Shown one piece after another: positions 9,370 through 50,584 of a stretch of DNA of 63,573 bases. The notes beneath the pieces were generated by a model. That model did not search any database, was not told where the DNA came from, and saw nothing but the letters and a program-made list of their open reading frames with translations. Position 1 is the first letter of the stretch; each line of letters starts with the position of its first letter. Position numbers and translations under genes: made by a program. Source of the stretch: Candidatus Woesearchaeota archaeon (GTDB lineage Archaea; Nanobdellota; Nanobdellia; Woesearchaeales; GW2011-AR4); the NCBI GenBank assembly GCA_016184145.1, contig JACPDF010000024.1:1-63573 (forward strand), in the 5' to 3' direction.

Positions 9370-10581
9370 ATGCATCTGCCAAAGTATAATGCAAAAAACC
9401 ATCCTTTGTTTAATTGCGGCAATGTAAACTGCCCTATATGCGCCAAGGCTTATTCCCAAATCAGGATAAAGAAAAGGATTGTCAAGGAAAATTTTTCTAC
9501 CGATGCTGTTGCCCCGTTTGTTGGAAGGTATGGGTATCCTGCTGTAAATGTCGGAATACTGGCGCCTCCGTCTGAGGAAGAGGAGTCATGGCTTTATGAT
9601 GCCCCGAAATACTGGGCTGCAAACAATTTCCAGATACCCAGAATAGTTGATTTCAGGAGCTCTTTGATAAATTCAAGGGATAAGTTTGATATCAAGAAGA
9701 GGAGCAATTTTTTGGAGCTAAACCAGGAGGTAAGCATGGCTTCAATGCCTGTTGATGTGGACATTAATCTAAAGGGCAAGCCGCGCTTTAGGATAAATTA
9801 TGACAATTTAATGGCTCCTACAGGCCCCTATGCAGAGCTAAAAAAGGCCAGATTAACTGAGAATCCAAAAATCCACACAAAGGTTCAGAAAGTGCATTAT
9901 GACACAGACTTAAAGGCAAATGAGGCATTAGTCTATCTTTATGATAATAATTTTGATGAAAATTTCTTAAGCAGGATTTTAAGTGTAGGCGCATTGGGCG
10001 TTGGGAAAAACAGGAAGTTAGTTCCTACAAGATGGTCGATAACAGCAACTGATGATACACTGGGAAGGCATTTGATTAATGAAGTAAAAAAGCATAATCA
10101 GATTGATTATTCTGCCTTTTTCGGCAGCTATCTTGGAAATCATTACTTAATATTGTGTTTTCCCGATGTATGGAGCTATGAATTGTTTGAGACAACCGTT
10201 TCCAATCCTGAATATTACATGACTGACCATGAGTTTTATGACAGCAGGAAATATTATGCTGAGAACACAGCTGGAGGCTATTATACAGTAAGATTGGCAA
10301 TATTGGAAAAATTAAATGAAATAAAAAAACAAGGAAGTTGCTTGGCTTTGAGGTTCATCACTTCTGATTATACATTGCCTTTAGGAGTCTGGGTTACAAG
10401 GGAAGCGGCAAGGAATGCCATGTCCTCGAAAAGGATAGAATTTTCATCAAAGGAATTGATGCTTGAATATGCAAGGAAGCTAATTAAGAAAAGGTTTAAC
10501 TTGGATGCAGAAGTTTATTTAAGGCAAAGCAAGGTTTTAAGGAGTATTAATAACCAATCGAAACTAATACAATACCTGTAA
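9370..10581 (+). CDS. nreA: Nre-family archaeal DNA repair protein
   Basis: N-terminal CGxxxCPI, FVGRYGYPxVNVG, RKLVPTRWSITATD, PLGVWVTRE, C-terminal PIP box QSKLIQYL. ATG 9370 preferred (TATA about 30 nt upstream). Confidence 0.88.
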   Translation: MHLPKYNAKNHPLFNCGNVNCPICAKAYSQIRIKKRIVKENFSTDAVAPFVGRYGYPAVNVGILAPPSEEEESWLYDAPKYWAANNFQIPRIVDFRSSLINSRDKFDIKKRSNFLELNQEVSMASMPVDVDINLKGKPRFRINYDNLMAPTGPYAELKKARLTENPKIHTKVQKVHYDTDLKANEALVYLYDNNFDENFLSRILSVGALGVGKNRKLVPTRWSITATDDTLGRHLINEVKKHNQIDYSAFFGSYLGNHYLILCFPDVWSYELFETTVSNPEYYMTDHEFYDSRKYYAENTAGGYYTVRLAILEKLNEIKKQGSCLALRFITSDYTLPLGVWVTREAARNAMSSKRIEFSSKELMLEYARKLIKKRFNLDAEVYLRQSKVLRSINNQSKLIQYL

Positions 10582-19561: not shown

Positions 19562-21112
19562 ATGCCAGCAAAAAAAATTTCTTCTGAGACAGGAAACGGG
19601 GCTCTGGATTTGGCCTTGGACACCATAAAATCAGGGAAGCAGGCCTTGGTTTTTGTGAATACAAAAAGGAGCGCGGAGAAAACAGCAGAGGACATTTCCA
19701 ATAAGATAAAATCAAATGATGAAAAATTAAGAGAACTAAGCGAAAATGCCCTAAAAGCGCTTTCCAGGCCGACAAAGCAGTGTGAAAGGCTGGCAAAGTG
19801 CATAAAAAAAGGGATAGCTTTCCATCATGCCGGCTTAGTTTCCAAGCAAAGGGAATTGATAGAGGGCAGCTTTAGAAATGGGACAATAAAGATAATATGC
19901 GCAACTCCAACTCTTGCCTATGGCGTTGATCTGCCTGCTTTCAGGGCTATAATAAAGGACTTAAAAAGGTACGGGAGCAATGGGCTAAATTACATTCCTG
20001 TTCTGGAGTATTTGCAGATGTCAGGAAGGGCGGGAAGGCCGAAGTTTGACAAGTTTGGAGAGGCTATTTGCGTAGCGATAAGCGATAATGACAAGAAGAA
20101 GCTTTATGAAAGGTATATCCTAGGCGAGCCTGAAGAGATTTATTCCAAATTAGCTGTTGAGCCTGTGCTGAGGACTTATTTATTAAGTTTGATAGCTGCA
20201 AATTTTGCTAATACCAAGAAAGAAATTGTTGATTTTTTTGGAAAAACATTCTGGGCATATCAGTTTGTGGATATGGCCAGATTAGAGCAGATAATAGACA
20301 AGATGCTTGACTTGCTTGAGGAATGGGAATTCATACAGAAGCATGGCCAGGATTTTGTTGAAGCAAATAAAATAAATGACAGGAGAATAAATGCAACAAA
20401 TATGGGGAAAAGGGTTGCGGAATTATATTTGGATCCTCTGACTGCTTACTTCTTTATTGCATGCCTAAGAAATGCCTCTGACAGGAGAATAAATGAGTTT
20501 TCTTTTTTGCAGATGGTAAGCCATACTTTGGAGATGAGGCCTTTGTTAAGAGTGTCAATCAAGGAAGGGGATAAAATACAGGAAGAATTGCTTAAGTTCT
20601 ATGACTTTTTGCTGGAAAAGGAGCCGTCCTTATATGAGCCCGAGTATGAGGATTTTGCCAACAGCATTAAAACTGCTTTAATGATGCATGAGTGGATTAA
20701 TGAAAAGGATGAGGAGTATTTGCTTGAAAATTACAATGCGAGGCCCGGTGAAATAAGGGGCAAATTGGAATTGGCTGACTGGCTGCTGTACGCTTCCGAG
20801 GAGATATCAAGGATTTTGCATTACCAGTACCTAAATAAAGAGATTGTAAAGTTAAGGCTCAGATTAAGGCATGGCGTTAAGGAAGAATTATTGCCTTTGA
20901 TAAGGCTGCAGGATATTGGAAGAGTAAGGGCAAGGAGATTATTTTCCAACAGAATCAAGGATATAAAAGACGTTAAGAATGCTGATTTAATGAAATTAAG
21001 CCAGATACTGGGAAAGCAGGTTGCCTTGAGCGTAAAGAAACAGGTCGGAGAAGAGATTAAAGAAGTTCCTGCCGGCAAGAGAAAAGGGCAGGTTAGTTTG
21101 GAGAAGTATTAA
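19562..21112 (+). CDS. Hel308/Ski2-like helicase, C-terminal part only (no RecA1 domain)
   Basis: ALVFVNTKR (motif IV), IAFHHAGL, ATPTLAYGVDLPA, QMSGRAGRP, HhH IGRVRAR, PIP-like QVSLEKY; no Walker A or DExH; own TATA at about 19531-19538. Confidence 0.85.
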   Translation: MPAKKISSETGNGALDLALDTIKSGKQALVFVNTKRSAEKTAEDISNKIKSNDEKLRELSENALKALSRPTKQCERLAKCIKKGIAFHHAGLVSKQRELIEGSFRNGTIKIICATPTLAYGVDLPAFRAIIKDLKRYGSNGLNYIPVLEYLQMSGRAGRPKFDKFGEAICVAISDNDKKKLYERYILGEPEEIYSKLAVEPVLRTYLLSLIAANFANTKKEIVDFFGKTFWAYQFVDMARLEQIIDKMLDLLEEWEFIQKHGQDFVEANKINDRRINATNMGKRVAELYLDPLTAYFFIACLRNASDRRINEFSFLQMVSHTLEMRPLLRVSIKEGDKIQEELLKFYDFLLEKEPSLYEPEYEDFANSIKTALMMHEWINEKDEEYLLENYNARPGEIRGKLELADWLLYASEEISRILHYQYLNKEIVKLRLRLRHGVKEELLPLIRLQDIGRVRARRLFSNRIKDIKDVKNADLMKLSQILGKQVALSVKKQVGEEIKEVPAGKRKGQVSLEKY

Positions 21113-28336: not shown

Positions 28337-28768
28337 TCAAACATCAACAACAAACAATGCCTTGTAGCCTTCTTTTGTTTTTTCTAATTTAAACATATGC
28401 AATGTAATTGCCTTGATATCATTCCTTAATTCATGCTTTTTCCTATTAATAGGCTCCCCAACCAATTCGGCATTTAGGGAATAATTATTGCCTTTTTTGC
28501 TTATTTTAACTGACGCTTTTTTGAATATCATTGAATAAGTATCTTTTAAGAACAAGATTTCAGATAAAAAATCAAACAACAAGTCGTCAGCGCTCTTTGC
28601 GCTTAATTTAACTGATTTTTTTTCCTTTTCTTTTATTTTATTTATATCTGCAGATTCTTCAAAGACTGCAAATGCGCAGTTTTCAAACAATTCATTAAGG
28701 CCTTTTCCATATGCTTCTATGGCTATGTCTGCAATGGCTACATCCTCCAGTATTTTGTATTTTTTCAT
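28337..28768 (-). CDS. Archease
   Basis: ADIAIEAYG.L.ELFEN, DIKAITLH, C-terminal DV; next to rtcB. Confidence 0.93.
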   Translation of the reverse strand: MKKYKILEDVAIADIAIEAYGKGLNELFENCAFAVFEESADINKIKEKEKKSVKLSAKSADDLLFDFLSEILFLKDTYSMIFKKASVKISKKGNNYSLNAELVGEPINRKKHELRNDIKAITLHMFKLEKTKEGYKALFVVDV

Positions 28769-28921
28769 TTTAGCCTTTTACAATAAGGATATAACAATAA
28801 TGAAATAATTTGGTTTCAATATTTAACAACAATAATATTATTTCCAATTATAATAAAACAATAATTTAATTTTCAATAATAAAAACAATGCAAATAATTA
28901 ATAATTAAAATTTTTATAATA

Positions 28922-30394
28922 TCATCCCTTGACGTTGGCTATCGGGAGAAGCTTTACGACCCTCTTGGATATTCCTGCCTTATGGACTGTATCAATGACT
29001 TCATCAACATTCTTGTATGCCAAGCCAGCTTCCTCTGCAAGGCCTGCCATCGAGACTGACTTGACATAAATGCCTCTTTTTTCCATGTCTTTCTGCAGTT
29101 TATCGCCTCTAACTTCCCTTTTTGCCCTTGCCCTTGACATTGTCCTTCCTGAGCCATGGGCAGTTGATCCCCACGTTTGCTTCATTGCTTCCTCTGTTCC
29201 GACCAATAAATAGGAACCTGTTTCCATACTGCCTCCAATGATAACAGGCTGGCCTGTTTTTTTGAATATAGGGTTTAATTCAGGATGCCCCGGCGGAAAT
29301 GCCCTTGTTGAGCCTTTTCTGTGGACAACTAATTTTTTCTTTTTCCCGTCAATTTCATGCTCCTCTAATTTTGCTATATTGTGAGCAACATCATAAACCA
29401 TATGCATTTCCATCTTTTCTGCATCCTTGTTAAAGGTTTTTTCAAAGCCCTCCCTTATTCTGTGTAAAATAACCTGCCTGTTGGAAAAGGCCATGTTTGC
29501 AGCGCATGCCATTGCCTTGTAATAATCCTGGCCTTCTTTGCTGTTAAAAGGGGCGCAAGTTAATTCGCGATCCCTTATCTCAATGCCATGCTCTTTCATC
29601 ACCGGTTCGAATTTCCTCAAATAATCCGTTCCTATCTGATGGCCAAATCCTCTGCTTCCGCAATGAACCATAACCACTATTTGATTAGAGGTATGTATTC
29701 CGAATGCTTTTGCGGTTTCTTTGTCAAAAATATTCTCGGCTTTGACAAGCTGTGTCTCAAGGTAATGATTTCCAGAGCCTAAAGTGCCTAATTGATTCAT
29801 GCCTCGCTGCATTGCTTTGTCGGAAACTTTAGTGTGGTCTGCCCAGTCTATTTTTCCATAGCCTTCTGTCCTTTCAATGTCTTCTTTCCAGCCATAGCCG
29901 TTTTCAACGCACCATTTGCTGCCATTCTCTATAATTTCTATGAACTGCGACTTGTTTGCATCTACAAATCCCTTGCAGCCAACGCCTGCAGGAACTAATT
30001 TGAAAAGGGTGTCTGTCAGCTCCCTTAACTTTGGCTTCACCTGATCAAAAGTCAGATTAGTGGTAACTAATCTCATGCCGCAATTAATGTCAAAGCCAAT
30101 TCCTCCGGGGCTTATAATCCCTTTTTCTTCAGGGTCAAAGGCAGCAACTCCTCCAATTGGAAATCCGTAGCCCCAGTGGCCATCCGGCATGCAAAAAGAA
30201 TATTTCTGAATTCCTGGAAGGCAAGCTACATTAGTCACCTGGTCAAAGACTCCATTGTCCATCTGCTCGATAAGACCTTTGCTGGCATAAATCCTGGCTG
30301 GAACCAGCATTCCTTTCTTATGTGATGTAGGTATTTCCCAAATAAAATCGCTTATCTTGTTTATTTCTTTTGGCCTTTCCGGTTCCGGTCTCAT
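28922..30394 (-). CDS. rtcB: RtcB RNA-splicing ligase
   Basis: MPDGHWGYGFPIGGV, GFDINCG, GSGNHY, HCGSRG, HRKG, HGSGR. Confidence 0.97.
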   Translation of the reverse strand: MRPEPERPKEINKISDFIWEIPTSHKKGMLVPARIYASKGLIEQMDNGVFDQVTNVACLPGIQKYSFCMPDGHWGYGFPIGGVAAFDPEEKGIISPGGIGFDINCGMRLVTTNLTFDQVKPKLRELTDTLFKLVPAGVGCKGFVDANKSQFIEIIENGSKWCVENGYGWKEDIERTEGYGKIDWADHTKVSDKAMQRGMNQLGTLGSGNHYLETQLVKAENIFDKETAKAFGIHTSNQIVVMVHCGSRGFGHQIGTDYLRKFEPVMKEHGIEIRDRELTCAPFNSKEGQDYYKAMACAANMAFSNRQVILHRIREGFEKTFNKDAEKMEMHMVYDVAHNIAKLEEHEIDGKKKKLVVHRKGSTRAFPPGHPELNPIFKKTGQPVIIGGSMETGSYLLVGTEEAMKQTWGSTAHGSGRTMSRARAKREVRGDKLQKDMEKRGIYVKSVSMAGLAEEAGLAYKNVDEVIDTVHKAGISKRVVKLLPIANVKG

Positions 30395-30646: not shown

Positions 30647-30694
30647 ACACAATATGTTGTGGTTCTTAACTGCAGTATATACAATATGTTGTGT
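30647..30694 (+). promoter_or_regulatory. Tandem NrdR-box-like operators
   Basis: ACACAATATGTTGTGG (30647-30662) and ATACAATATGTTGTGT (30679-30694), 32 bp apart, between the TATA box and the nrdJ start. Confidence 0.8.
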
Positions 30695-30733
30695 CTATGT
30701 CTAGTGGTAAAAAGAGGGGAGAGGGATGCAAAA

Positions 30734-33700
30734 ATGACGTCAAAGATTTCTGAAATAAAAAAACGCGATGGCAGTGTAGCGGCTTTTGACAGCAGCAAGA
30801 TAGCCAATGCAATATTCAAGGCTGCAAGATCTGTTGGCGGCCAGGACAGGAATGAAGCTGATAAGCTTGCAGATAAAGTTGTCAAGGAGCTTGAAAAAGA
30901 AACAGAGGGCATCCCGACAGTTGAGCAATTACAAGACTTAGTGGAAAAGGTTTTGATAGAAGCAGGGCATGCAAAGACAGCCAAAGCCTATATTGTGTAC
31001 AGGCAGAAAAGGGCTGAGGCAAGGGAAGAGAAGATGAGAGTCCTGGAAAAGGACTATTTAGATGATGTTGACAAAAGGTTTGATGTCAATGCTTTGAGGG
31101 TTTTAAAGGCGAGATACCTAAAAAAAGATGATAAAGGAAAGCTTATAGAAACGCCAAAGCAGCTTTTTACAAGAATATCCACTCACTTGGGCATACCAGA
31201 GATTTTTTATGATGAAAAAGTGTTTGACATAAACGAGAAGCAGAATGTTTTTGAGATTGAGGAGTTTAACAAGGAAGAGCAGGACAACAAAGTTTCAATA
31301 GGAAAATATAAGCTAAACCAATACCACATGGAAGGCGTAAGAAGGCTTTATGAACGCTACAATAAGCAGAAAAAGATGAAGGTTTCATGGAGCCAGTTTT
31401 TAGAGCTCCTGGAGCAAGGCTATTTTAACAACTACGAGAGAAACATAGATGAATTCTACAGCCTGATGGTTGAAAAAAGGTTTATGCCTAATACACCGGC
31501 AATAGCAAATTTCGGCAATTCATTGGGAATGGGAAGCGCGTGCTTTCATCCCGACCAGCTTATATTAACAGAAGACGGCCCAAGAAAGATAAGCGAGGTT
31601 AATGCAGGTGACAAGGTTTTGACGCATAGGGGAAGATTCAGGAAGGTCAAGCAAGTGTTTGTCAGGGATTCTAATTCGCTTCTTTCCTTTGAATGCAAGA
31701 AATTGCCTAAAACCACAATGTTGGCAACAGAGGAGCATCCAATATTAACGCACAAAGATGGCGAAGCTGGATGGTATCCTGCCTATATGATAAAAGAAGG
31801 CGATAAAGTAGCGCTTTCGTACCCTGCTGAAACAAAAGATGTGGAAAAAATTTTGGTAAGTGAGTTTGTGGATGGAATAACAGTAAAGGATGACAAATGC
31901 TGTTATGAGTATAGCGGAGGCAAATTCAATGCATTTGTGCACACTACAAAGTCTGTAAACAATACAATCTTAGTTGATTATGACTTAATGAAGCTGTTTG
32001 GCTTTTATTTGGCAGAGGGCACTGTTTCTGAAGAAGATTGCGTCAGATTTACATTATCTGCGGATGAAGCAGATTACTGCAATGAAATCATTTCCATAAT
32101 GGAAAGGAAATTTGGAGTATCAGCCAGAATTGAAAGCACTAACGATGCAGAAAGAAAGTGGCTGTCTCTGCGCTTTCATTCAACAATATTGGCAAAGTTC
32201 TTCATTAGCTTATTTGGGACTGGCTATAATAAGAAAAAAATACCCAGCTGGATTATGTTGCTTCCAGCTGAGAAGCAAAAAGGCCTGATGTCTGGTATGA
32301 TAAGAGGGGACGGAACTGTATTTAAGAATTGGAACAAAATGAATGCAAAGCTTGTTATGTCAAATACCAGTTTAGTGTATGCATTTTGGCAGATGTGCAT
32401 GCGATGCGGCGTTTTTGCTGCACTAGGCAAAGAGAGCATGCCAAAGCTTGCAAAGGTACAGCCCGTCAGATGTACCTTAGGAGATGCAAAAGGTCAATTA
32501 TTAATGAATGAATTATTTGGAGAAACTATACAAGAAACTGTTAGCGAAGACAAAACTTTTGTTGTAAATGGGATTGTTTTTACAGATGTAGAAAAGATTG
32601 AAAAAATTGATTATAAGGGTGCTGTATATAATTTAGAGGTGGAAGAAGACCATTCTTATGTAGCAAATATGGTTTCTGTGCATAATTGCTTTGTTTTAGG
32701 TGTAGAGGACAGCATGGAAAGCATCATGGACACTTTAAAGTACACTGCAATCATACACAAAAGCGGAGGAGGGACTGGATTTAATTTCTCGAAGATAAGG
32801 CCGGAAGGGGATTTTGTAAGCTCAACTTCAGGAGCAGCATCCGGCCCGTTGTCTTTCATGAGGATGTTTGATACAATGACAGAGGTAGTCAAGCAAGGAG
32901 GGATAAGAAGAGGAGCAAATATGGGGATATTAAACAGCAACCACCCTGACATAGAGAAGTTCATAACAGCCAAAGAAGGAAACAAGGCTTTGACTAATTT
33001 CAACATCTCTGTTTTGCTAATGCCTGATTTTTGGGAATGCTATGAGAAAAACAAGCCTTATCCATTGGTAAACCCAAGAAATGGAGAAGTGGTAAAGACT
33101 GTTGATCCCAAAGCTTTGTTTGATAAGATTGTTTATCAGGCATGGGAATCAGCAGAGCCAGGAGTCATTTTCTTTGATATTGTAAACGATTACAACCCGT
33201 TCTTTGAGCATCTGGGGCCTATAGTCACAACTAACCCCTGCGGAGAAGTGCTTCTTTATCCTAACGAACCTTGCAACCTAGGAAGCATAAATGTATGGGC
33301 TTTTGCAAAAGAGGATGGGCAGGGAAACGTGTATTATGACTGGAACGGCCTGAAAGAAGTCACAAAGAAATGCACCAAGCTGCTGGATAATGTCATTGAT
33401 GTAAATAAGTTTCCGCTGAAGCAGATAGAAGAGATGAGCCTTAATACAAGGAAGATTGGCTTAGGAGTTATGGGAGTTGGTGATCTATTGTACGAGTTAA
33501 GGCTGCCATACAATAGCGATGAGGGAAGGAAGTTTATGGAAAAACTGATGCAGTTCATCGCTTACCATTCCCATGCTGAAAGCATGGAGTTGGCAAGGAA
33601 AAGAGGCAATTTGCCTTACTATGACAAAAGCTTCTACAAGGGAGGAAGGCTGCCTTTCAGGGGCTTTGAATTAAAAGATGAGTGGGAGCATGACTGGAAA

Positions 33701-34438
33701 AAGTTAAGTGACGATGTTAAAAAATATGGAACAAGGAACGGCTACACAACGGTTATTGCGCCTACAGGCAGCATATCAATGATAGCTGGATGCTCATCAG
33801 GAATGGAGCCGGTGTATAGCTTGGCGTTTGAGAAGAATGTCAAGGTTGGAAGCTTCTACTATGTTGACCCTGCTTTTGAAAGGGCTTTAAGGAGAGAAGG
33901 CTTATACTCTGAGGAGCTTATGCAGGAAATATGCGAGAATGGGGGAAGTGTACAAGGATTAGAAGATTTTCCTGCAAAACTGCAGAAGGCTTTTGTTACT
34001 GCAATGGACATAACTCCAGAAGACCATATAAGGGCTCTTGCAGCATTCCAGAAATGGGTTGACAGCTCAATTTCAAAGACAAATAATTTCCCGGCAGATG
34101 CGACAGTAGAGCACATGAGAGACAGCTATATTTTAGCTTACAAGCTTGGATGCAAGGATGTCACAGTATTCAGGGACTCAAGCATCAAGAACCAAGTCCT
34201 GGTTGCGCCTAAAAAGAAAGAAATTGAGAAGAAAGCTGAAGCTGTTGAGATAAAGCACGAACTGAGAGTTGCTGGAAATGGAAGCGCAATGGCGCAAAAA
34301 GAGCTTGACTCCGGAAGCTTGGTAATGCAGAGCGAGAGCAAGGGAAAGACGAGGACATGCCCCGAGTGCGGCGGACAAGCCCAAATACAGGAAGGCTGCG
34401 TCACATGCAAAGCATGCGGCTGGGCGTTATGCAAGTGA
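30734..34438 (+). CDS. nrdJ: Class II (AdoCbl-dependent) ribonucleotide reductase with ATP cone and intein
   Basis: ATP cone IKKRDG; QGGIRRGANM; TNPCGE; EPCNLGSIN; IAPTGSIS; C-terminal CPEC...CKAC. ATG 30734 preferred over the listed start, which lies inside the operator. Confidence 0.93.
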   Translation: MTSKISEIKKRDGSVAAFDSSKIANAIFKAARSVGGQDRNEADKLADKVVKELEKETEGIPTVEQLQDLVEKVLIEAGHAKTAKAYIVYRQKRAEAREEKMRVLEKDYLDDVDKRFDVNALRVLKARYLKKDDKGKLIETPKQLFTRISTHLGIPEIFYDEKVFDINEKQNVFEIEEFNKEEQDNKVSIGKYKLNQYHMEGVRRLYERYNKQKKMKVSWSQFLELLEQGYFNNYERNIDEFYSLMVEKRFMPNTPAIANFGNSLGMGSACFHPDQLILTEDGPRKISEVNAGDKVLTHRGRFRKVKQVFVRDSNSLLSFECKKLPKTTMLATEEHPILTHKDGEAGWYPAYMIKEGDKVALSYPAETKDVEKILVSEFVDGITVKDDKCCYEYSGGKFNAFVHTTKSVNNTILVDYDLMKLFGFYLAEGTVSEEDCVRFTLSADEADYCNEIISIMERKFGVSARIESTNDAERKWLSLRFHSTILAKFFISLFGTGYNKKKIPSWIMLLPAEKQKGLMSGMIRGDGTVFKNWNKMNAKLVMSNTSLVYAFWQMCMRCGVFAALGKESMPKLAKVQPVRCTLGDAKGQLLMNELFGETIQETVSEDKTFVVNGIVFTDVEKIEKIDYKGAVYNLEVEEDHSYVANMVSVHNCFVLGVEDSMESIMDTLKYTAIIHKSGGGTGFNFSKIRPEGDFVSSTSGAASGPLSFMRMFDTMTEVVKQGGIRRGANMGILNSNHPDIEKFITAKEGNKALTNFNISVLLMPDFWECYEKNKPYPLVNPRNGEVVKTVDPKALFDKIVYQAWESAEPGVIFFDIVNDYNPFFEHLGPIVTTNPCGEVLLYPNEPCNLGSINVWAFAKEDGQGNVYYDWNGLKEVTKKCTKLLDNVIDVNKFPLKQIEEMSLNTRKIGLGVMGVGDLLYELRLPYNSDEGRKFMEKLMQFIAYHSHAESMELARKRGNLPYYDKSFYKGGRLPFRGFELKDEWEHDWKKLSDDVKKYGTRNGYTTVIAPTGSISMIAGCSSGMEPVYSLAFEKNVKVGSFYYVDPAFERALRREGLYSEELMQEICENGGSVQGLEDFPAKLQKAFVTAMDITPEDHIRALAAFQKWVDSSISKTNNFPADATVEHMRDSYILAYKLGCKDVTVFRDSSIKNQVLVAPKKKEIEKKAEAVEIKHELRVAGNGSAMAQKELDSGSLVMQSESKGKTRTCPECGGQAQIQEGCVTCKACGWALCK
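31541..32686 (+). mobile_element. Intein (382 aa) with LAGLIDADG homing endonuclease
   Basis: Starts CFHPD, block B TEEHP, LFGFYLAEG and LMSGMIRGDG, ends VYNLEV...VHN followed by Cys; removal restores GSA-CFV. Confidence 0.93.
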
Positions 34439-34504: not shown

Positions 34505-35119
34505 ATGGTAACGAAGCTAAAAAAAAAGATTGTAGTGGAAGGGGATGAGAATAGGGAGCATCTTGGCTTGATACATGTTGTTACAGGAGATGGCAAAGGC
34601 AAGACAACAAGTTCTTTAGGCCTTGCAGTAAGGGCCCTGGGCAGCAATTTAAGGGTTTATATGGTGCAATTTCTTAAGTCAGGAACAACAGGAGAGATTT
34701 ATACTATAAAGAATCATCTCCCGGGCATGAATATTATACAGTTCGGAGTTGATGCAGTCAGGGAAAGGCAGCAAAAACTGGATATTTTCAGGGACAAAGG
34801 AAGCAAGTTTGTGTTTAATCCTGATGAGGAGGAGAAAGAAGCGGCAATGATGGGCTTCGAGCATGCAAAAAAGATAATAAAATCAGGAGAATACGACCTT
34901 GTGATACTGGATGAGATAAATGTTGTTTTAGACAAGGGGCTGATTCCGATAAAAGAAGCTCTTGAGCTGATGGAAAACCATGGGAATGTGGAACTGTATT
35001 TTACCGGAAGGGATGCCCCCCAGGAGATTATTGACAAAGCAGATTACGCCTCTTTAGTCAAATCAGTAAAGCACCCCTGGCAGAAAGGGATAAAAGCCAG
35101 AAAAGGAATCGAGTTTTAA
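34505..35119 (+). CDS. cobO: Cob(I)alamin adenosyltransferase (CobO/BtuR/CobA type)
   Basis: GLIHVVTGDGKGKTTSSLG, VQFLK, YDLVILDEI, TGR, KHP..KGI.ARKGIEF. Confidence 0.93.
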   Translation: MVTKLKKKIVVEGDENREHLGLIHVVTGDGKGKTTSSLGLAVRALGSNLRVYMVQFLKSGTTGEIYTIKNHLPGMNIIQFGVDAVRERQQKLDIFRDKGSKFVFNPDEEEKEAAMMGFEHAKKIIKSGEYDLVILDEINVVLDKGLIPIKEALELMENHGNVELYFTGRDAPQEIIDKADYASLVKSVKHPWQKGIKARKGIEF

Positions 35120-35127
35120 GGCAAAAT

Positions 35128-37005
35128 ATGGCAAAAATAAAGCTGAGCAATAATGCATTGCAGATACTGGAAAAGAGGTACTTGAAGAAGGACAAGGAAG
35201 GCAAAGTAATAGAAAAGCCTGAAGACTTGTTTCTCAGGGTAGCTAACAATATTGCGCTGGCTGACGCAAAATATTTGCTTAAGGAGGAAATAGAAAATCT
35301 GCAGCAAAAAGAAAACAAGGAATACCATGAACTGGCAAAGGAGAAAACATTCCAGAATTTAACAAACAAAAACAGCAAAATAAAGAATAAGATAAAAAAA
35401 ACCGAGAAAGAATTTTATGATATGATGGCAAGGCTTGATTTTTTGCCTAACTCGCCAACTTTGTTTAATGCCGGAAGGAAACTGCAGCAGCTCGCTGCAT
35501 GCTTTGTGCTTCCTGTCGAGGATGACTTAGATGCAATATTCAAGGCTTTGCATTACGCAGCCAAAATTTCCAAATCCGGCTCGGGCACCGGGTTTAATTT
35601 CTCCCATTTGAGGCCAAAAAACGATGTCATAGCATCTGTCACAGGCTTTTCTTCCGGCCCGTTGTCTTTCATGAAGATATTTGACGCGGTAACAGAGCAA
35701 ATCAAGCTTGGCGGCTTAAGAAGAGGAGCGCACATGGGCATTTTGAGGGTTGACCATCCGGACATAGAAGAGTTTGTAACGATAAAGGCAAAGGAAAAAG
35801 TCCTTGAGAATTTCAACATCTCTGTTTCGATAACGGACAGATTCATGCATGCTGTTGAGAAAAATAAAAGCTATCCTTTGATAAACCCGAGGACAGGGGA
35901 AGAAGTAAGGGAAGAGAGCGCGAACAAGATTTTTGAGATGATATGCCAAACATCCTGGAGGACAGGGGATCCAGGCTTATTATTCATTGACAGGATAAAT
36001 AATAATAACCCCACGCCTAAGCTTGGCGCGCTTGAGAGCACTGACAGCTGCGGAGAGCAGCCTCTGCTGCCCTATGAGTCAGCGAATCTGGGGTCAATAA
36101 ACCTTTCAAACATGGTTAATAATGGAAAAGTTGACTTTAACAAACTGGGAAAGATTGTGCATACGGCAATACACTTCCTTGATAATGTAATTGACATGTG
36201 CAATTATCCAACACCGGAAACAAAGGAGATTGTGGGCAAAAACAGGAAAATCGGGCTGGGGGTTATGGGCTTTGCGGAAATGCTTGTAAAGCTGAAGATT
36301 CCTTATAACTCTGAGAAAGCGGTCAATGTTGCCGGAAATGTTATGAGTTTTATAAGGAAAGAGGCTGACAAAGCTTCTGTTGAGCTTGCCAAGGAAAGGG
36401 GAGTTTTCCCAAGCTGGGAAGACAGCATTTACAGCAAGGAAAGCAAACAGTTTAAGGGAAAGCACCTTAAATTGAGGAATGCGACAAGATTGACTTTAGC
36501 TCCTACTGGAAGCATAAGCATCATTGCAAATACTTCTTTCGGGATTGAGCCTTTATTTGCATTAAGCTTTGTGAGAATGCTTAATGACGGCTCTGAGCAG
36601 TTGAATGTGGACAAGAATTTTGAGGATGCGATGAAAAAGAGAAAGCTGTACAGGGACGAGCTTATGAGGTTCATAGCAAAAAAAGGAAGCATACAGCAGA
36701 TTGCCTCGATACCAAAAGACATAAGGGATGTTTTTGCTGTTTCTTATGACATAACACCAGAGTACCATGTAAAGATACAGGCTGCTTTCCAGAAGCATGT
36801 TGATAATGCTGTTTCAAAAACGGTAACTTTGCCTAATGAGGCCAGCATAGAGGATGTAAAAATCACTTACATGCTTGCTTACAGGCTTGGATGCAAAGGA
36901 ATTTCCATATACAGGTTTGGAAGCAGAGACGACCAGGTATTGTTCTTAAGGGGCATAAAAGACAATCAAGTGAGTTTGACAAACTGGCTGAAGCATCTGA
37001 GGTAA
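35128..37005 (+). CDS. Divergent NrdJ paralogue lacking the resolving Cys and C-terminal redox Cys
   Basis: RNR fold motifs FLPNSPTLFNAG, AACFV, RRGA, APTGSIS; but TDSCGE and ESANLGSIN; no ATP cone; ends QVSLTNWL. Confidence 0.88.
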   Translation: MAKIKLSNNALQILEKRYLKKDKEGKVIEKPEDLFLRVANNIALADAKYLLKEEIENLQQKENKEYHELAKEKTFQNLTNKNSKIKNKIKKTEKEFYDMMARLDFLPNSPTLFNAGRKLQQLAACFVLPVEDDLDAIFKALHYAAKISKSGSGTGFNFSHLRPKNDVIASVTGFSSGPLSFMKIFDAVTEQIKLGGLRRGAHMGILRVDHPDIEEFVTIKAKEKVLENFNISVSITDRFMHAVEKNKSYPLINPRTGEEVREESANKIFEMICQTSWRTGDPGLLFIDRINNNNPTPKLGALESTDSCGEQPLLPYESANLGSINLSNMVNNGKVDFNKLGKIVHTAIHFLDNVIDMCNYPTPETKEIVGKNRKIGLGVMGFAEMLVKLKIPYNSEKAVNVAGNVMSFIRKEADKASVELAKERGVFPSWEDSIYSKESKQFKGKHLKLRNATRLTLAPTGSISIIANTSFGIEPLFALSFVRMLNDGSEQLNVDKNFEDAMKKRKLYRDELMRFIAKKGSIQQIASIPKDIRDVFAVSYDITPEYHVKIQAAFQKHVDNAVSKTVTLPNEASIEDVKITYMLAYRLGCKGISIYRFGSRDDQVLFLRGIKDNQVSLTNWLKHLR

Positions 37006-37311: not shown

Positions 37312-38031
37312 ATGCAAAGCATAAAACTAAGCGATAATCTTGCGATAAGGAACCTGAAAAAGGAGTATTTGCTGAAAAAGGAAAGGATAAACAGCAGATT
37401 AAGGGAATTTGACAAATTTTATTTGGGGAGTTATTCCTGGCATTTTGAAAATAACAATATGGAACTAAAATTAAATGATAAAAACCCGAATCACAATTTA
37501 TTTGAGGAACTTTGTTTCTGCATATTGACTGCAAATACAAGTGCTGAGATGGGTTTAAGGTCCATAGATAAGATAAGGGATTTATTAGTTAATGGCTCTG
37601 TTGAGGATATGAGTAGGAATTTAGAAGGTATTTATCGTTTTAATAACTTAAGACCCGCATTCATCGTGCATACAAGAGAAAAATTACAAAAAAGCCATAA
37701 TTTTGAATTAAAAAATATTATTGAAACCTTGAAAAACAACCCTGATGCTCTGCGTGATTTTTTTGTTGAGAATGTAAAGGGTTTTGGCTATAAGGAGGCT
37801 TCTCATTTTCTGAGAAATATCGGGTTTAAAGGGTACGCAATTTTAGATAAGCATATACTAAATTCTTTGGTTGAATTTGGGGTTGTTGATGAGTTTAAAA
37901 TGCCATTGAACAAGGAAAGGTACAAGGAATTGGAGAATAAGCTAAGGCTGTTCAGCAATGAAATAGGCATTCCAATGGACGAGCTGGATTTATTGCTGTG
38001 GAGCAGGAAGAACGGAAGGATTCTTAAATAA
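37312..38031 (+). CDS. ogg: 8-oxoguanine N-glycosylase/DNA lyase (OGG2 type)
   Basis: LFEELCFCILTAN, KGFGYKEASHFLRNIG, AILDKHI, ELDLLLW, C-terminal ILK. Confidence 0.9.
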   Translation: MQSIKLSDNLAIRNLKKEYLLKKERINSRLREFDKFYLGSYSWHFENNNMELKLNDKNPNHNLFEELCFCILTANTSAEMGLRSIDKIRDLLVNGSVEDMSRNLEGIYRFNNLRPAFIVHTREKLQKSHNFELKNIIETLKNNPDALRDFFVENVKGFGYKEASHFLRNIGFKGYAILDKHILNSLVEFGVVDEFKMPLNKERYKELENKLRLFSNEIGIPMDELDLLLWSRKNGRILK

Positions 38032-38033
38032 AA

Positions 38034-38750
38034 ATGCCAAAACCAACGAAAATCAAAGATTTTCTGGGTTTTGAAAATCAGAGACTTTCAAAACCTCCCA
38101 AAAACATTGATAAAATAATCTTTTTATTGAAAAAGGAAATAAAGCAGTTTAAGGAGCCTATAGCAACAGAAATAGGGGAGAAAACTAAAGATCCATTTCT
38201 TGTTTTGATTTCCTGCATAATGAGCCTGAGGACTAAGGATACTACAACAGGCCCTGCAGCTAAAAGATTGTTTAAATTAGCAAAAACGCCAAAAGGAATG
38301 CTGAAACTATCAAAAAAACAGATAGAGAAGGCTATTTTTCCAGTCGGTTTTTATCCTACTAAAGCAAAGTATATTGTTAAAACATGTGAGGTTTTGGTTG
38401 GTAAATATAATGGCAAGGTTCCTGATGCTATGGAAGAATTGATTAAATTGCCAGGTGTTGGGAAAAAATGCGGTGCAATAACTTTGGTATATGGTTTTAA
38501 CAAATCAAATTACATACCTGTCGATGTGCACGTTCTAGTTATTTCAAATAGATTAGGTTGGGTAAAAAGCAAATATCCAGATAAAGTAATGGAAAAACTA
38601 ATGGAGATTATACCAAAAAAATATTGGCATGATTTGAATGATTTATTAGTGAGGCACGGGCAAAACGTTTGTGTGACAAATTCCCCATTTTGCAGCCGTT
38701 GTGCTATTAAAAGTTATTGTCCTAAAATAGGCGTAACGCGAAGCAGATAA
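38034..38750 (+). CDS. nth: Endonuclease III
   Basis: DPFLVLISCIMSLRTKD, HhH LPGVGKK, PVDVHV, Fe-S motif C-x6-C-x2-C-x5-C. Confidence 0.93.
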   Translation: MPKPTKIKDFLGFENQRLSKPPKNIDKIIFLLKKEIKQFKEPIATEIGEKTKDPFLVLISCIMSLRTKDTTTGPAAKRLFKLAKTPKGMLKLSKKQIEKAIFPVGFYPTKAKYIVKTCEVLVGKYNGKVPDAMEELIKLPGVGKKCGAITLVYGFNKSNYIPVDVHVLVISNRLGWVKSKYPDKVMEKLMEIIPKKYWHDLNDLLVRHGQNVCVTNSPFCSRCAIKSYCPKIGVTRSR

Positions 38751-47788: not shown

Positions 47789-50584
47789 ATGGAATATGCC
47801 AAAATAAGGGATTTTTTTGTAAAGTACTGGTCGTATTTTCTAGTCCTGATACCAATATTTATCGTCATATACATGAGGATGCAGTCGGCAAACCTTACAA
47901 TCACAGACGACTGGGCAGCCACAAATGTTTACAACTACTACAAGGCATCAATCAAAAGCCAAATAATGCAGCAATACCCGAATATTCCTGAATCCAACTT
48001 AAATTCCCTTGTGGAGCAGGAGTTTGGCAAGTTTGCAAGTGAAAACAAGGAGAATATAAACCAGCAGATAAAAGCAGTTTCCCAGCAATTAAAAGACAAT
48101 TATCAATACGAATCCGGAAGCAAGCGCTACCCCTATATGGGCGACATAGACTCCTATTACTTTTTGAGGCAGGCAAGAAATATAGTTGAAAAATCCCATA
48201 ATTGCGATGTAATTGAGAATGGGATATGCTATGATACATATACCTTGGCTCCGTTAAAAGCAAGGCTGTCACAAACCATACACCCTTATTTCATAGTATA
48301 CCTCTACAAAATAATCAAGCCTTTTAATCCTGACATAACGCTAATGCAGGCTCAGATTTTAGTGCCTACTGTGCTTGCAGTGGCAATTGCAATCATTGTT
48401 TTCTTTATGATGCTAAGGAATTTTAACCTGCTTGCAGCGCTTACAACCTCAATCTTGGTTTCAGTTAATCCTATATTCCTATCAAGAAGCCTTGGGTCTG
48501 ATACGGACATATACAATGTATTCTTTCCGGTTCTGGTGGTATTCCTCATTTTTGAATCGTTTAGATCAGAAAACTTGAAGGCAAAAGCGATTTTTGCTGC
48601 GCTTGCTGGCATTTTCATCGGCGCATATAGCTTTTCCTGGAACGGCTGGTGGTATCTTTTTGACTTTATTATAATAGCAATTATTGCAGATTTCATATTC
48701 AAAACAGCTAAAGAATATATAAAAACGAAAAAATTTGATTTAAGGGAAACAGCAAGAAGCCAAAATGCAATTAGGACATTTTCCATCTTAGCGCCGTTTT
48801 TGATTTTTTCAATGATTGCTGTAAGCCTTATCATTGGCTTTAACTCTGTACTTGAAGCCTATAGGAGCCCTCTTTCCTTCGTTACGGTAAAGGCAGCAGC
48901 ACAACAAAGCTTATGGCCAAATGTCCTGACTACAGTCGCTGAGTTCAACGAAGCATCTATAAATGAAATAATAAAGCAGATGGGAGGAAGAGTGTTTTTC
49001 TTTTTTGCCATGCTTGGATTTGTTCTCCTGTTTTATAAGAAACTCAAGAATATAACAAGCAATATCTTCTTATTCTTAATTTCCATTGGGCTGCTATATT
49101 ATCTTGCAACCAAAAGCGCAACCAGCTCTCTTGCTCCGGTCACCTACATTTTGGTGCTTGGCCTGCCACTTATTTTAGGAATTTATATGGCATTGCGCTC
49201 GGAAGAGGACTTTGATATAAAAACTGCAGTGCTTCTATTTTTATGGGTGTCTGCATCTATTTACGCAGCGACAAAGGGCGTGCGCTTTACCCTGCTTCTG
49301 CTTCCGCCAATTGCCATAGGAATCGGAATTGCTTTTGGATTCCTGCATTCAAAACTGACCCTTTTGCTTGCCAAAGCCCTCAGAATAAAATGGCTGATAA
49401 GCATAGTTATCTTCCTGTTTTTCGCATTTTACCTTATAGAGCCTGTTAAAAATGGAGTTAACATATCCAAACAATACATTCCAAATGTTGACGACCAGTG
49501 GTGGAATGCGTTAACAAAGATAAAGGAAAGCTCCAAGCCGGATGCCATAATAAACTCGTGGTGGGACTTTGGGCACTGGTTTAAGTACATTGCAGACAGG
49601 AGAGTCACGCTTGATGGCTCGTCTCAAAATAATGAGCAGCTCCATTGGCTGGGGAAGCTTCTCCTCACGCCAGATGAAAATGAGGCAAGAGGCATCCTAA
49701 GGATGCTTGATTGCGGAGGGAATAAAGCTTTTAGGGACATAGATAAAAAGAAGGATAATGCCCAAAAATCAATCGAGCTTGTCAATAAGATCATTCTTTT
49801 AAAGAAAAAGGAAGATGTGGAGAAAATGCTTTTAGAAAATGGCTTTTCACAGGCAGAATCAAATGAAATTTTGCAATACAGCCATTGCGAGGCTCCGGAG
49901 AACTTTTTAATAACAAGCGAGGATATGGTGGGAAAAAGCGGCGTATGGTCTCATTTCGGCAGCTGGAATTTTGGCAGGGCCTGGATGCAAAAAACGTTCA
50001 AAAACGCGAAAGAGAAAGAAGAAGTAATTAAAAGTTTCATTGAGCAGTTTGGGTTCTCAAGGGAAGAAGCTGATAGCTATTATTCCCAGCTTGAAAACCT
50101 GAAAACGGAATCTGAAATTAATGCCTGGATAGCCCCTTGGCCGGGTTACGCCCAGGGGGAATCCGGCTGTGAGAACGATAATGGCACGGTAAAATGCGGC
50201 TTTCAAAATGTGGTTGTAGAAATTAACCTGACTACGATGGAAGCCAGAATTCCAACAAGCCAAGGCTATTTAAGGCCGGATGTATTTGGCTACACAACCC
50301 CAGATAGTGTTGAGATAAAGGATTATTCCGAGAACACCATAGGCATAGGAATGGTGCTGATGATAACAAAAGACAGCTATACAAGCATTTTCATGTCGCC
50401 GCAGCTTGTAAACAGCACATTTACAAAGCTATATTATCTTGACGGCCACGGCACATCGTACTTTGAGCCTTTTCACAGCAGCACGGGCTTTAACGGCTTC
50501 AGCATTAAAATATGGAAAGTCAACTGGGAAGGAAGAGAAAATAGGCTGATTGCTGACAGGTTTAATGCAGCCAAATTTAGCTGA
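47789..50584 (+). CDS. aglB: Oligosaccharyltransferase AglB/STT3
   Basis: DSYY, DTD, TVAE and WWDFG motifs; many transmembrane segments. Confidence 0.93.
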   Translation: MEYAKIRDFFVKYWSYFLVLIPIFIVIYMRMQSANLTITDDWAATNVYNYYKASIKSQIMQQYPNIPESNLNSLVEQEFGKFASENKENINQQIKAVSQQLKDNYQYESGSKRYPYMGDIDSYYFLRQARNIVEKSHNCDVIENGICYDTYTLAPLKARLSQTIHPYFIVYLYKIIKPFNPDITLMQAQILVPTVLAVAIAIIVFFMMLRNFNLLAALTTSILVSVNPIFLSRSLGSDTDIYNVFFPVLVVFLIFESFRSENLKAKAIFAALAGIFIGAYSFSWNGWWYLFDFIIIAIIADFIFKTAKEYIKTKKFDLRETARSQNAIRTFSILAPFLIFSMIAVSLIIGFNSVLEAYRSPLSFVTVKAAAQQSLWPNVLTTVAEFNEASINEIIKQMGGRVFFFFAMLGFVLLFYKKLKNITSNIFLFLISIGLLYYLATKSATSSLAPVTYILVLGLPLILGIYMALRSEEDFDIKTAVLLFLWVSASIYAATKGVRFTLLLLPPIAIGIGIAFGFLHSKLTLLLAKALRIKWLISIVIFLFFAFYLIEPVKNGVNISKQYIPNVDDQWWNALTKIKESSKPDAIINSWWDFGHWFKYIADRRVTLDGSSQNNEQLHWLGKLLLTPDENEARGILRMLDCGGNKAFRDIDKKKDNAQKSIELVNKIILLKKKEDVEKMLLENGFSQAESNEILQYSHCEAPENFLITSEDMVGKSGVWSHFGSWNFGRAWMQKTFKNAKEKEEVIKSFIEQFGFSREEADSYYSQLENLKTESEINAWIAPWPGYAQGESGCENDNGTVKCGFQNVVVEINLTTMEARIPTSQGYLRPDVFGYTTPDSVEIKDYSENTIGIGMVLMITKDSYTSIFMSPQLVNSTFTKLYYLDGHGTSYFEPFHSSTGFNGFSIKIWKVNWEGRENRLIADRFNAAKFS

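Follow-up and report, generated by a model that had tools for sequence, protein, structure and literature searches.

A conserved clade of class II ribonucleotide reductase paralogues with a PIP-box-like tail, encoded beside canonical NrdJ in Woesearchaeales

The closest described relative of the protein considered here is NrdJ of Thermotoga maritima (1xje, 3o0o), a dimeric class II ribonucleotide reductase (RNR) that uses adenosylcobalamin (AdoCbl). We compared it with the product of nrdJ2, a gene in a 63,573-nucleotide stretch of DNA from a Candidatus Woesearchaeota archaeon of the order Woesearchaeales (the window; contig JACPDF010000024.1 of assembly GCA_016184145.1, genome G000 in our survey). 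nrdJ2 encodes a class II RNR paralogue of 625 residues and occupies positions 35128–37005, stop codon included, on the plus strand, as do the other features of the window given below unless stated. The two proteins share the fold, the radical cysteine, the glutamate next to it and the first redox cysteine; NrdJ2 also has in common with NrdJ the P-N-S-P diphosphate loop and a genomic link to cobO. They differ in that NrdJ2 has Asp-Ser for Asn-Pro ahead of the radical cysteine, Ala319 for the second redox cysteine, a leucine in loop 2 and an added PCNA-interacting-protein (PIP) box, and it has neither the cysteine-rich C-terminal domain nor the ATP cone. The changes recur in a clade under purifying selection, and the tail is predicted to dock on the sliding clamp PCNA; we tentatively read NrdJ2 as a clamp-tethered nucleotide-binding partner or sensor acting with the canonical NrdJ.

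The C-terminal Q-x-x-L-x-x-aromatic-hydrophobic motif of NrdJ2, carried on a disordered tail, is shared with the PIP clients of this genome, PolB, PolD DP2 and NreA. In contrast to these archaeal clients, the cargo in NrdJ2 is a nucleotide-metabolism fold and not a DNA-acting enzyme. An R1 fold kept for a non-reductase role, as our favoured reading would have it, is known from the betaherpesvirus proteins UL45 of human cytomegalovirus (HCMV) and M45 of murine cytomegalovirus (MCMV), and in a passage of PMC5469499 UL45 is a homologue of the large subunit of cellular RNR that has no activity. However, UL45 and M45 are viral class I homologues directed against host signalling, whereas NrdJ2 is a cellular class II protein with the pocket and radical cysteine kept. 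Spd1 of fission yeast acts through degradation and, unlike NrdJ2, is a small disordered eukaryotic inhibitor without RNR homology. An excerpt of PMC10939359 presents it as an RNR inhibitor with PCNA-binding motifs that links RNR control to PCNA. Finally, the formate-dependent class III NrdD, according to a section of PMC4390871, has a single cysteine on the bottom face and does without an external disulfide shuttle. The NrdJ2 of the window, of the A type described below, likewise has only one bottom-face cysteine, but class III enzymes work with a glycyl radical and in most cases have no such glutamate, whereas NrdJ2 has class II architecture, keeps the glutamate and includes a subclade with both cysteines. 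Our searches of the published literature, supplements aside, turned up neither a PIP box on any RNR or NrdJ nor a link between RNR and PCNA in archaea, and the Asp-Ser variant was not met with either; sequences of this kind might be listed in the supplements to the NrdJ phylogenies of PMC5704485 and PMC8365446.

The open reading frame (ORF) of nrdJ2 is unbroken and ends with a stop codon at 37003–37005. Pfam assigns to the protein the RNR large-subunit domains Ribonuc_red_lgC (PF02867, E 4.5e-133) and Ribonuc_red_lgN (PF00317); these class I/II domains are the only ones found, with no glycyl-radical domain and no ATP cone, and E310 is present. The best sequence match in the PDB is T. maritima NrdJ (E 3e-116, about 36% identity). 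An AlphaFold2 (AF2) model, calculated from 53 aligned family members, matches 1xjm/1xje in Foldseek with a template-modelling (TM) score of 0.82; the alignment was shallow, no templates were used, and the confidence is low at the finger loop (299–317), at loop 2 and around C125. The all-alpha domain and ten-stranded barrel by which an RNR is recognized are thus found by Pfam, PDB match and Foldseek alike. A C-terminal domain rich in cysteine occurs in about 70% of NrdJ, as stated in a portion of PMC5704485, and the canonical relatives of NrdJ2 end in cysteine-rich tails. In NrdJ2 no cysteine follows C589, so there is neither a C-terminal cysteine pair nor a cysteine-rich domain.

The substrate and catalytic residues show a mixture of retained and changed positions. 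The apical phosphate-binding loop P107-N-S-P110 (35446–35457), constant in the 53 aligned members, is of the diphosphate type; PMC8365446 gives P-N-S-P as the mark of nucleoside diphosphate (NDP) substrates, and P-A-G-R is the alternative apical loop in NrdJ. The first redox cysteine is kept as C125 (TGC, 35500–35502), which corresponds to C134 in T. maritima and C225 in Escherichia coli. The finger loop reads T305-D306-S307-C308-G309-E310 (36040–36057). Here, C308 (TGC, 36049–36051) aligns to the radical cysteine C322 of T. maritima and E310 to E324, and both are kept, whereas D306 (GAC, 36043–36045) and S307 (AGC) replace N320 and P321. The second redox cysteine (C333 in T. maritima, C462 in E. 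coli) is replaced by A319 (GCG, 36082–36084), a change of the A subclade only, so that the bottom-face redox pair is incomplete: C125 is present and its partner position is alanine. In loop 2 (K193–H202, 35704–35733), L194 stands at the position of Q203 in T. maritima, where Gln is found in 159 of 162 canonical NrdJ; in the T. maritima structures this Gln is a base-reading residue. The Asn ahead of the radical cysteine was reportedly found to be essential in class I RNR by Kasrayan and colleagues in 2002.

An original prediction, made from the letters of the window, had described much of this. It named a TDSCGE motif with the radical cysteine (36049) and glutamate kept, a second cysteine lost to GCG at 36082 and a retained proximal cysteine, and codons and the T. 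maritima alignment agree on all three; its rewired loop 2 is borne out by L194 and, by codon, H202, and the absence of an ATP cone and of a C-terminal cysteine tail by Pfam and by the lack of cysteines after C589.

We compared 117 full-length members of the NrdJ2 family with 162 canonical NrdJ. Asp-Ser precedes the radical cysteine in 117/117 members and Asn-Pro in 162/162 canonical NrdJ. T-D-S-C-G-E is also present in all of the 120 best database relatives; those that carry a name are mostly labelled as metagenome-assembled genomes (MAGs) of Woesearchaeota or Nanoarchaeota, with one Flavobacteriales label. Among the 116 members of the A and C types, 97% have L194, and the outlier P0155 has Lys. 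The pocket is kept: of 201 columns with a conservation of at least 90% in canonical NrdJ, NrdJ2 retains 171, and the P-N-S-P apical loop, the P-T-G..S distal loop, C308 and G309 are constant in the 53-member alignment. Further conserved changes (T538V, N567T and T593S) lie in the C-terminal strands. The family-wide changes are therefore Asn to Asp, Pro to Ser, loop 2 Gln to Leu, loss of the cysteine-rich domain and gain of the PIP tail. With 117 relatives showing these substitutions and this tail, they are more than chance. As a separate observation, constraint has been gained at five positions, K139 (in helix A, where canonical NrdJ have Asp or Glu), E263, N328, C358 and R454; these residues are conserved to at least 95% within NrdJ2 and seldom occur in canonical NrdJ.

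The reducing cysteines, in contrast to these constant positions, vary by subclade. In the A subclade (84 members, including the gene of the window) the second redox cysteine is Ala, except for a Ser in one of the 84. In its sister, the C subclade, which has 32 members of about 60% identity, both redox cysteines are present and R198 of loop 2 is replaced by Leu. The first position, that of C125, is Cys in both subclades and Ser in P0155, an unclassified archaeal MAG sequence of 47% identity, which has Ser and Ala at the two redox positions and Asp in place of the finger-loop Glu but still shows T-D-S-C-G and terminates directly in a textbook PIP box. The reducing pair thus differs among subclades, and therefore thiol-driven reduction is not the common constraint of the family. 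The original prediction had counted the Cys-to-Ala change among the traits of the proposed system. The loss is absent from part of the family and therefore cannot define it: 32 of 117 members keep the cysteine, and one is without both. The remainder of the proposed clade fares better, as Asp-Ser-Cys and the PIP tail co-occur and are linked to cobO and a canonical nrdJ.

The A type, the C type and P0155 form one branch with a Shimodaira–Hasegawa-like approximate likelihood-ratio (SH-aLRT) support of 99 in two quick maximum-likelihood (ML) trees, and the branches within NrdJ2 are short. ORFs are intact in all members, over a range of identity from 94% to 47%. Internal stops in the orthologues of G009 and G014, checked as candidates for recoding, are true stop codons right after the PIP motif. 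The ratio of nonsynonymous to synonymous substitution rates (dN/dS) between nrdJ2 and its same-genus orthologue is 0.042 at a dS of 1.48, which is near saturation, and neighbouring genes give 0.02–0.08. These results support NrdJ2 as a conserved clade under purifying selection.

On the origin of the clade the trees point in two directions. NrdJ2 is 42–44% identical to NrdJ1, the canonical enzyme of the same locus, compared with 53–59% to other canonical NrdJ, and the two quick trees set NrdJ1 apart on a long stem. However, a constrained search joining NrdJ1 and NrdJ2 improved on the free quick tree by 48.3 log-likelihood units (approximately unbiased test, p-AU 0.92), and the two may be sister paralogues. 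NrdJ2 may be a recent duplicate of NrdJ1, or NrdJ1 a foreign replacement, and these trees favour neither.

In place of the cysteine-rich domain of canonical NrdJ, NrdJ2 has a tail predicted to be disordered (residues 601–625, 36928–37002), with a predicted local distance difference test (pLDDT) below 50 in the AF2 model. This tail holds the PIP-box-like motif Q614-V-S-L-T-N-W-L621 (36967–36990). The original prediction had located the motif correctly but had taken it for the end of the protein; K-H-L-R follows before the stop, so the motif lies four residues from the terminus. We counted the pattern Q-x-x-[LIMV]-x-x-[FYW]-[FYWLIMV] within the last 16 residues and found it in 115/117 NrdJ2 members compared with 0/162 canonical NrdJ. 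One of the two exceptions is a truncated sequence, and the other has the motif with a longer extension after it. Across G000, 9 of 1203 ORFs of at least 100 residues have such an ending, where about 2.6 are expected, and these include PolD DP2 (contig 4, 19250–22765, minus strand), PolB (contig 36, 34042–36492, plus strand) and, in the window itself, NreA (9370–10578; Nre_N/Nre_C by Pfam), all by C-terminal motif match. The window also contains a 516-residue ORF (19562–21109) with only the C-terminal helicase domain and archaeal helicase domain 4, a Hel308-like fragment; its PIP-like end is one residue short, and no N-terminal helicase domain lies in frame. The tails of NreA and of this fragment are as the original prediction described them.

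To the motif we added a complex model, which had been suggested for this pair, of the cognate PCNA (contig 8 of G000, 48867–49604; 28-row alignment) with NrdJ2 residues 594–625, in three runs with three controls. The median score of the three runs is 0.69, compared with 0.00 for the best control. In calibration, 58 of 80 solved complexes reached the score mark and so did 2 of 110 mismatched pairs, a guide that is rough here, as our own alignments were used. The runs share at least 95% of their contacts, with a partner pLDDT of at least 55. In the model, residues 610–621 and 624 of NrdJ2 contact residues 39, 42–46, 124, 222 and 238–245 of PCNA, which places the modelled PIP box in the usual pocket and at the PCNA C-terminus. 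Motif conservation, the same motif on PolB, PolD DP2 and NreA, and the controlled model together support the predicted docking of NrdJ2 on PCNA.

Next, we considered where NrdJ2 occurs and in what company. The survey covered 41 relatives, 25 genomes of the window's own taxonomic family and 16 of other families in the order. NrdJ2 is present in 17/25 of the former and 0/16 of the latter. A coding pattern for T-D-S-C-G-E-Q-P is found in 4 of 401 sampled genomes of the phylum, which are 4 of the 5 sampled from this family and 0 of the 396 others; one of the four is an unpublished genome, G012. A canonical NrdJ accompanies NrdJ2 in 15 of the 17 genomes, 13 times of the NrdJ1 type and twice of a nucleoside triphosphate (NTP) type that is catalytically canonical (G016 and G022). 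Both the 17/25 and the 15/17 include G012 and become 16/24 and 14/16 without it. An NrdJ1-type enzyme is likewise encoded in the genome of P0155. The remaining two genomes yielded no RNR besides NrdJ2; these are G017, with a completeness of about 90%, and G014, with about 87%. The gene order nrdJ1-cobO-nrdJ2-ogg recurs in both subclades within this Woesearchaeota-like DPANN family, usually followed by nth. The order is rtcB-nrdJ-cobO in G013, a family member without NrdJ2 that has a single canonical NrdJ, and nrdJ is followed by cobO in the four genomes checked from other families. In G022 (contig 5, L031, 3316–6309), and also in G016, the gene upstream of cobO is the NTP-type canonical NrdJ, with a P-G-G-R loop; it shares 64% identity with NrdJ1 over the ATP cone and only about 30% over the catalytic body, and by sequence the catalytic part looks to have been replaced in place.

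The locus in the window follows this order. NrdJ1 (30659–34438), two genes 5′ of nrdJ2, is a canonical NrdJ by Pfam and sequence, with an ATP cone, a LAGLIDADG intein, the N-P-C-G-E motif with the second cysteine, and a cysteine-rich tail of the zinc-finger type. Between the two lies cobO (34505–35119; PF02572, E 3e-52), an ATP:corrinoid adenosyltransferase, whose stop is 8 nt before the nrdJ2 ATG. On the 3′ side, ogg (37312–38031, by Pfam) starts 306 nt after nrdJ2, and a gene for an nth-like HhH-GPD glycosylase (38034–38750, by Pfam) starts 2 nt after the end of ogg. The intact ORF, the coupling to cobO, the canonical NrdJ neighbour and ogg followed by nth had all been reported in the original prediction and are found as reported.

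Several further observations concern this region. The GTG start listed for nrdJ1 adds 25 residues ahead of the ATP cone, and the ATG at 30734, which fits the orthologues better, is probably the true start. The NrdJ1 intein (about 382 residues, about 31541–32686, with a LAGLIDADG domain) interrupts the protein precisely at its first redox cysteine (S-A|C-F-V); it is absent from the same-genus orthologue in G001, and the NrdJ1 frames of about 1240–1270 residues in G009 and G015 could hold one. RtcB tRNA ligase and archease (28337–30394, minus strand) lie directly upstream of nrdJ1. The sequencing runs that match the stretch are DNA, labelled groundwater metagenome, with no RNA run listed. RNase HII (PF01351) was not found in G000, which is 96.8% complete, and a link of NrdJ2 to ribonucleotide repair was considered on this basis and rejected: RNase HII is present in 36 of the 41 relatives, including NrdJ2 carriers and a same-genus genome, and its presence is not anti-correlated with NrdJ2. 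Its absence from G000 is probably an assembly gap.

The reading that we favour, tentatively and at somewhat less than an even chance, is that NrdJ2 is a clamp-tethered nucleotide-binding partner or sensor acting with canonical NrdJ. NrdJ2 would be a class II RNR-fold protein in which the electron-delivery domain has been swapped for a short disordered tail with a PIP box. Through this tail it would dock on PCNA beside the polymerases. The nucleoside diphosphate pocket, the finger-loop cysteine and the glutamate are retained, and the protein would still bind nucleotides. It would partner the canonical NrdJ of the same locus and tie DNA synthesis and repair to the (d)NDP/dNTP status or supply nearby, and it would not itself supply the deoxynucleotides of the cell. 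We infer that reductase activity has been lost, in that NrdJ2 on its own would have ceased to carry out thiol-driven reduction. A canonical NrdJ is nearly always present in these genomes, although they are only about 1 Mb in size, and this also speaks against NrdJ2 as the reductase of the cell. Examined as a possible pseudoenzyme, NrdJ2 has lost the Asn and, in the A subclade, the second Cys; the radical Cys and the NDP loops are constant, and the replacement residues are fixed. The original prediction had offered three options, a clamp-tethering partner, a B12 RNR with a non-thiol reductant and a B12 radical enzyme for another substrate; on these our data bear through the finding that thiol-based reduction is not what the family has in common.

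Several points weigh against this reading. First, the constant finger-loop Cys and Glu and the new Asp-Ser are easier to explain by active-site chemistry than by a passive sensor or adaptor, and they therefore favour a radical enzyme or an alternative reductase. Second, NrdJ2 as the sole RNR found in G017 and G014 could mean a working reductase. Third, an obligate NrdJ1:NrdJ2 heterodimer is less likely because G016 and G022 pair NrdJ2 with a very different, NTP-type NrdJ. Finally, PIP–PCNA complexes are well represented among solved structures, and the pass of the PCNA–tail model may reflect likeness to these complexes and not real binding.

The rival that survives best, though we think it rather unlikely, is that NrdJ2 is a PCNA-tethered AdoCbl radical enzyme whose chemistry on a nucleoside diphosphate would be new and probably redox-neutral, for example a diol-dehydratase-like first half of the RNR reaction with no reductive half. 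The radical Cys, the Gly and the NDP-binding loops are constant even in the 47%-identical outlier, and D306 and S307 are fixed in 117/117 members, which speaks for a new constraint and not drift. T538V, N567T and T593S cluster in the C-terminal strands, which would lie near the cofactor side of the finger loop. The reducing cysteines vary by subclade, as expected if no reduction is needed, and nrdJ2 is tightly coupled to cobO by the 8-nt gap. However, NrdJ1 requires cobO anyway, AdoCbl binding by NrdJ2 is putative, and the AF2 model is of low confidence at the loop concerned (299–317). We know of no class I or II RNR homologue with such redox-neutral activity, and the half-reaction product is unstable in mutant RNRs. 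A related proposal, which appears unlikely to us, widens the substrate: a clamp-riding B12 radical enzyme, redox-neutral on an NDP or on a damaged nucleotide or ribonucleotide at the fork. Its context is cobO upstream and the repair glycosylases ogg and nth downstream.

Equally doubtful is that NrdJ2 is a replisome-tethered reductase, re-reduced by a small molecule in the manner of class III or in trans by the cysteine-rich domain of NrdJ. The single bottom-face Cys of the A type is as in the formate-using class III enzymes covered in the section of PMC4390871 cited above, and the C type retains both cysteines. In a portion of PMC5704485, the cysteine-rich domain is described as moving electrons between subunits, and some genomes as having two NrdJd of which only one carries this domain. 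The substrate pocket is conserved, and the lack of another RNR among the genes found in G017 and G014 also favours a reductase. However, the Asn of 162/162 canonical NrdJ is replaced in every NrdJ2 member, and the outlier P0155 lacks both cysteines and has Asp for Glu. Most formate-using class III enzymes are without the Glu that NrdJ2 keeps, which does not fit the class III comparison. The canonical RNR is retained in 15/17 genomes of about 1 Mb, which suggests that the two are not redundant, and the loop 2 changes remove a base-reading residue. Lastly, a decaying or functionless duplicate with a PIP-like tail by chance is very improbable: the changed positions do include catalytic residues conserved in 162/162 canonical NrdJ, but intact ORFs from 94% down to 47% identity, short branches and a motif in 115/117 members against 0/162 canonical NrdJ stand against it, and we rejected it on conservation across members (D-S-C kept in 117/117, PIP in 115/117) and dN/dS (about 0.04); a decaying duplicate would have refuted the original prediction.

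The physical coupling of deoxynucleotide supply to the replisome is a long-debated question. A natural RNR-fold protein with a conserved clamp-binding motif makes such a link directly testable with two recombinant proteins. With the NrdJ2 family, nature has moreover run a rare experiment on the active site of RNR, in which Asp has been fixed in place of Asn and the reducing cysteines are progressively lost. If NrdJ2 is non-catalytic, it may be the first RNR pseudoenzyme of cells for which a docking partner is defined; if it is catalytic, it may show a chemistry not known for the RNR scaffold. A protein of 625 residues is kept at a dN/dS of about 0.04 in genomes of about 1 Mb, and an important role in these archaea is therefore implied.

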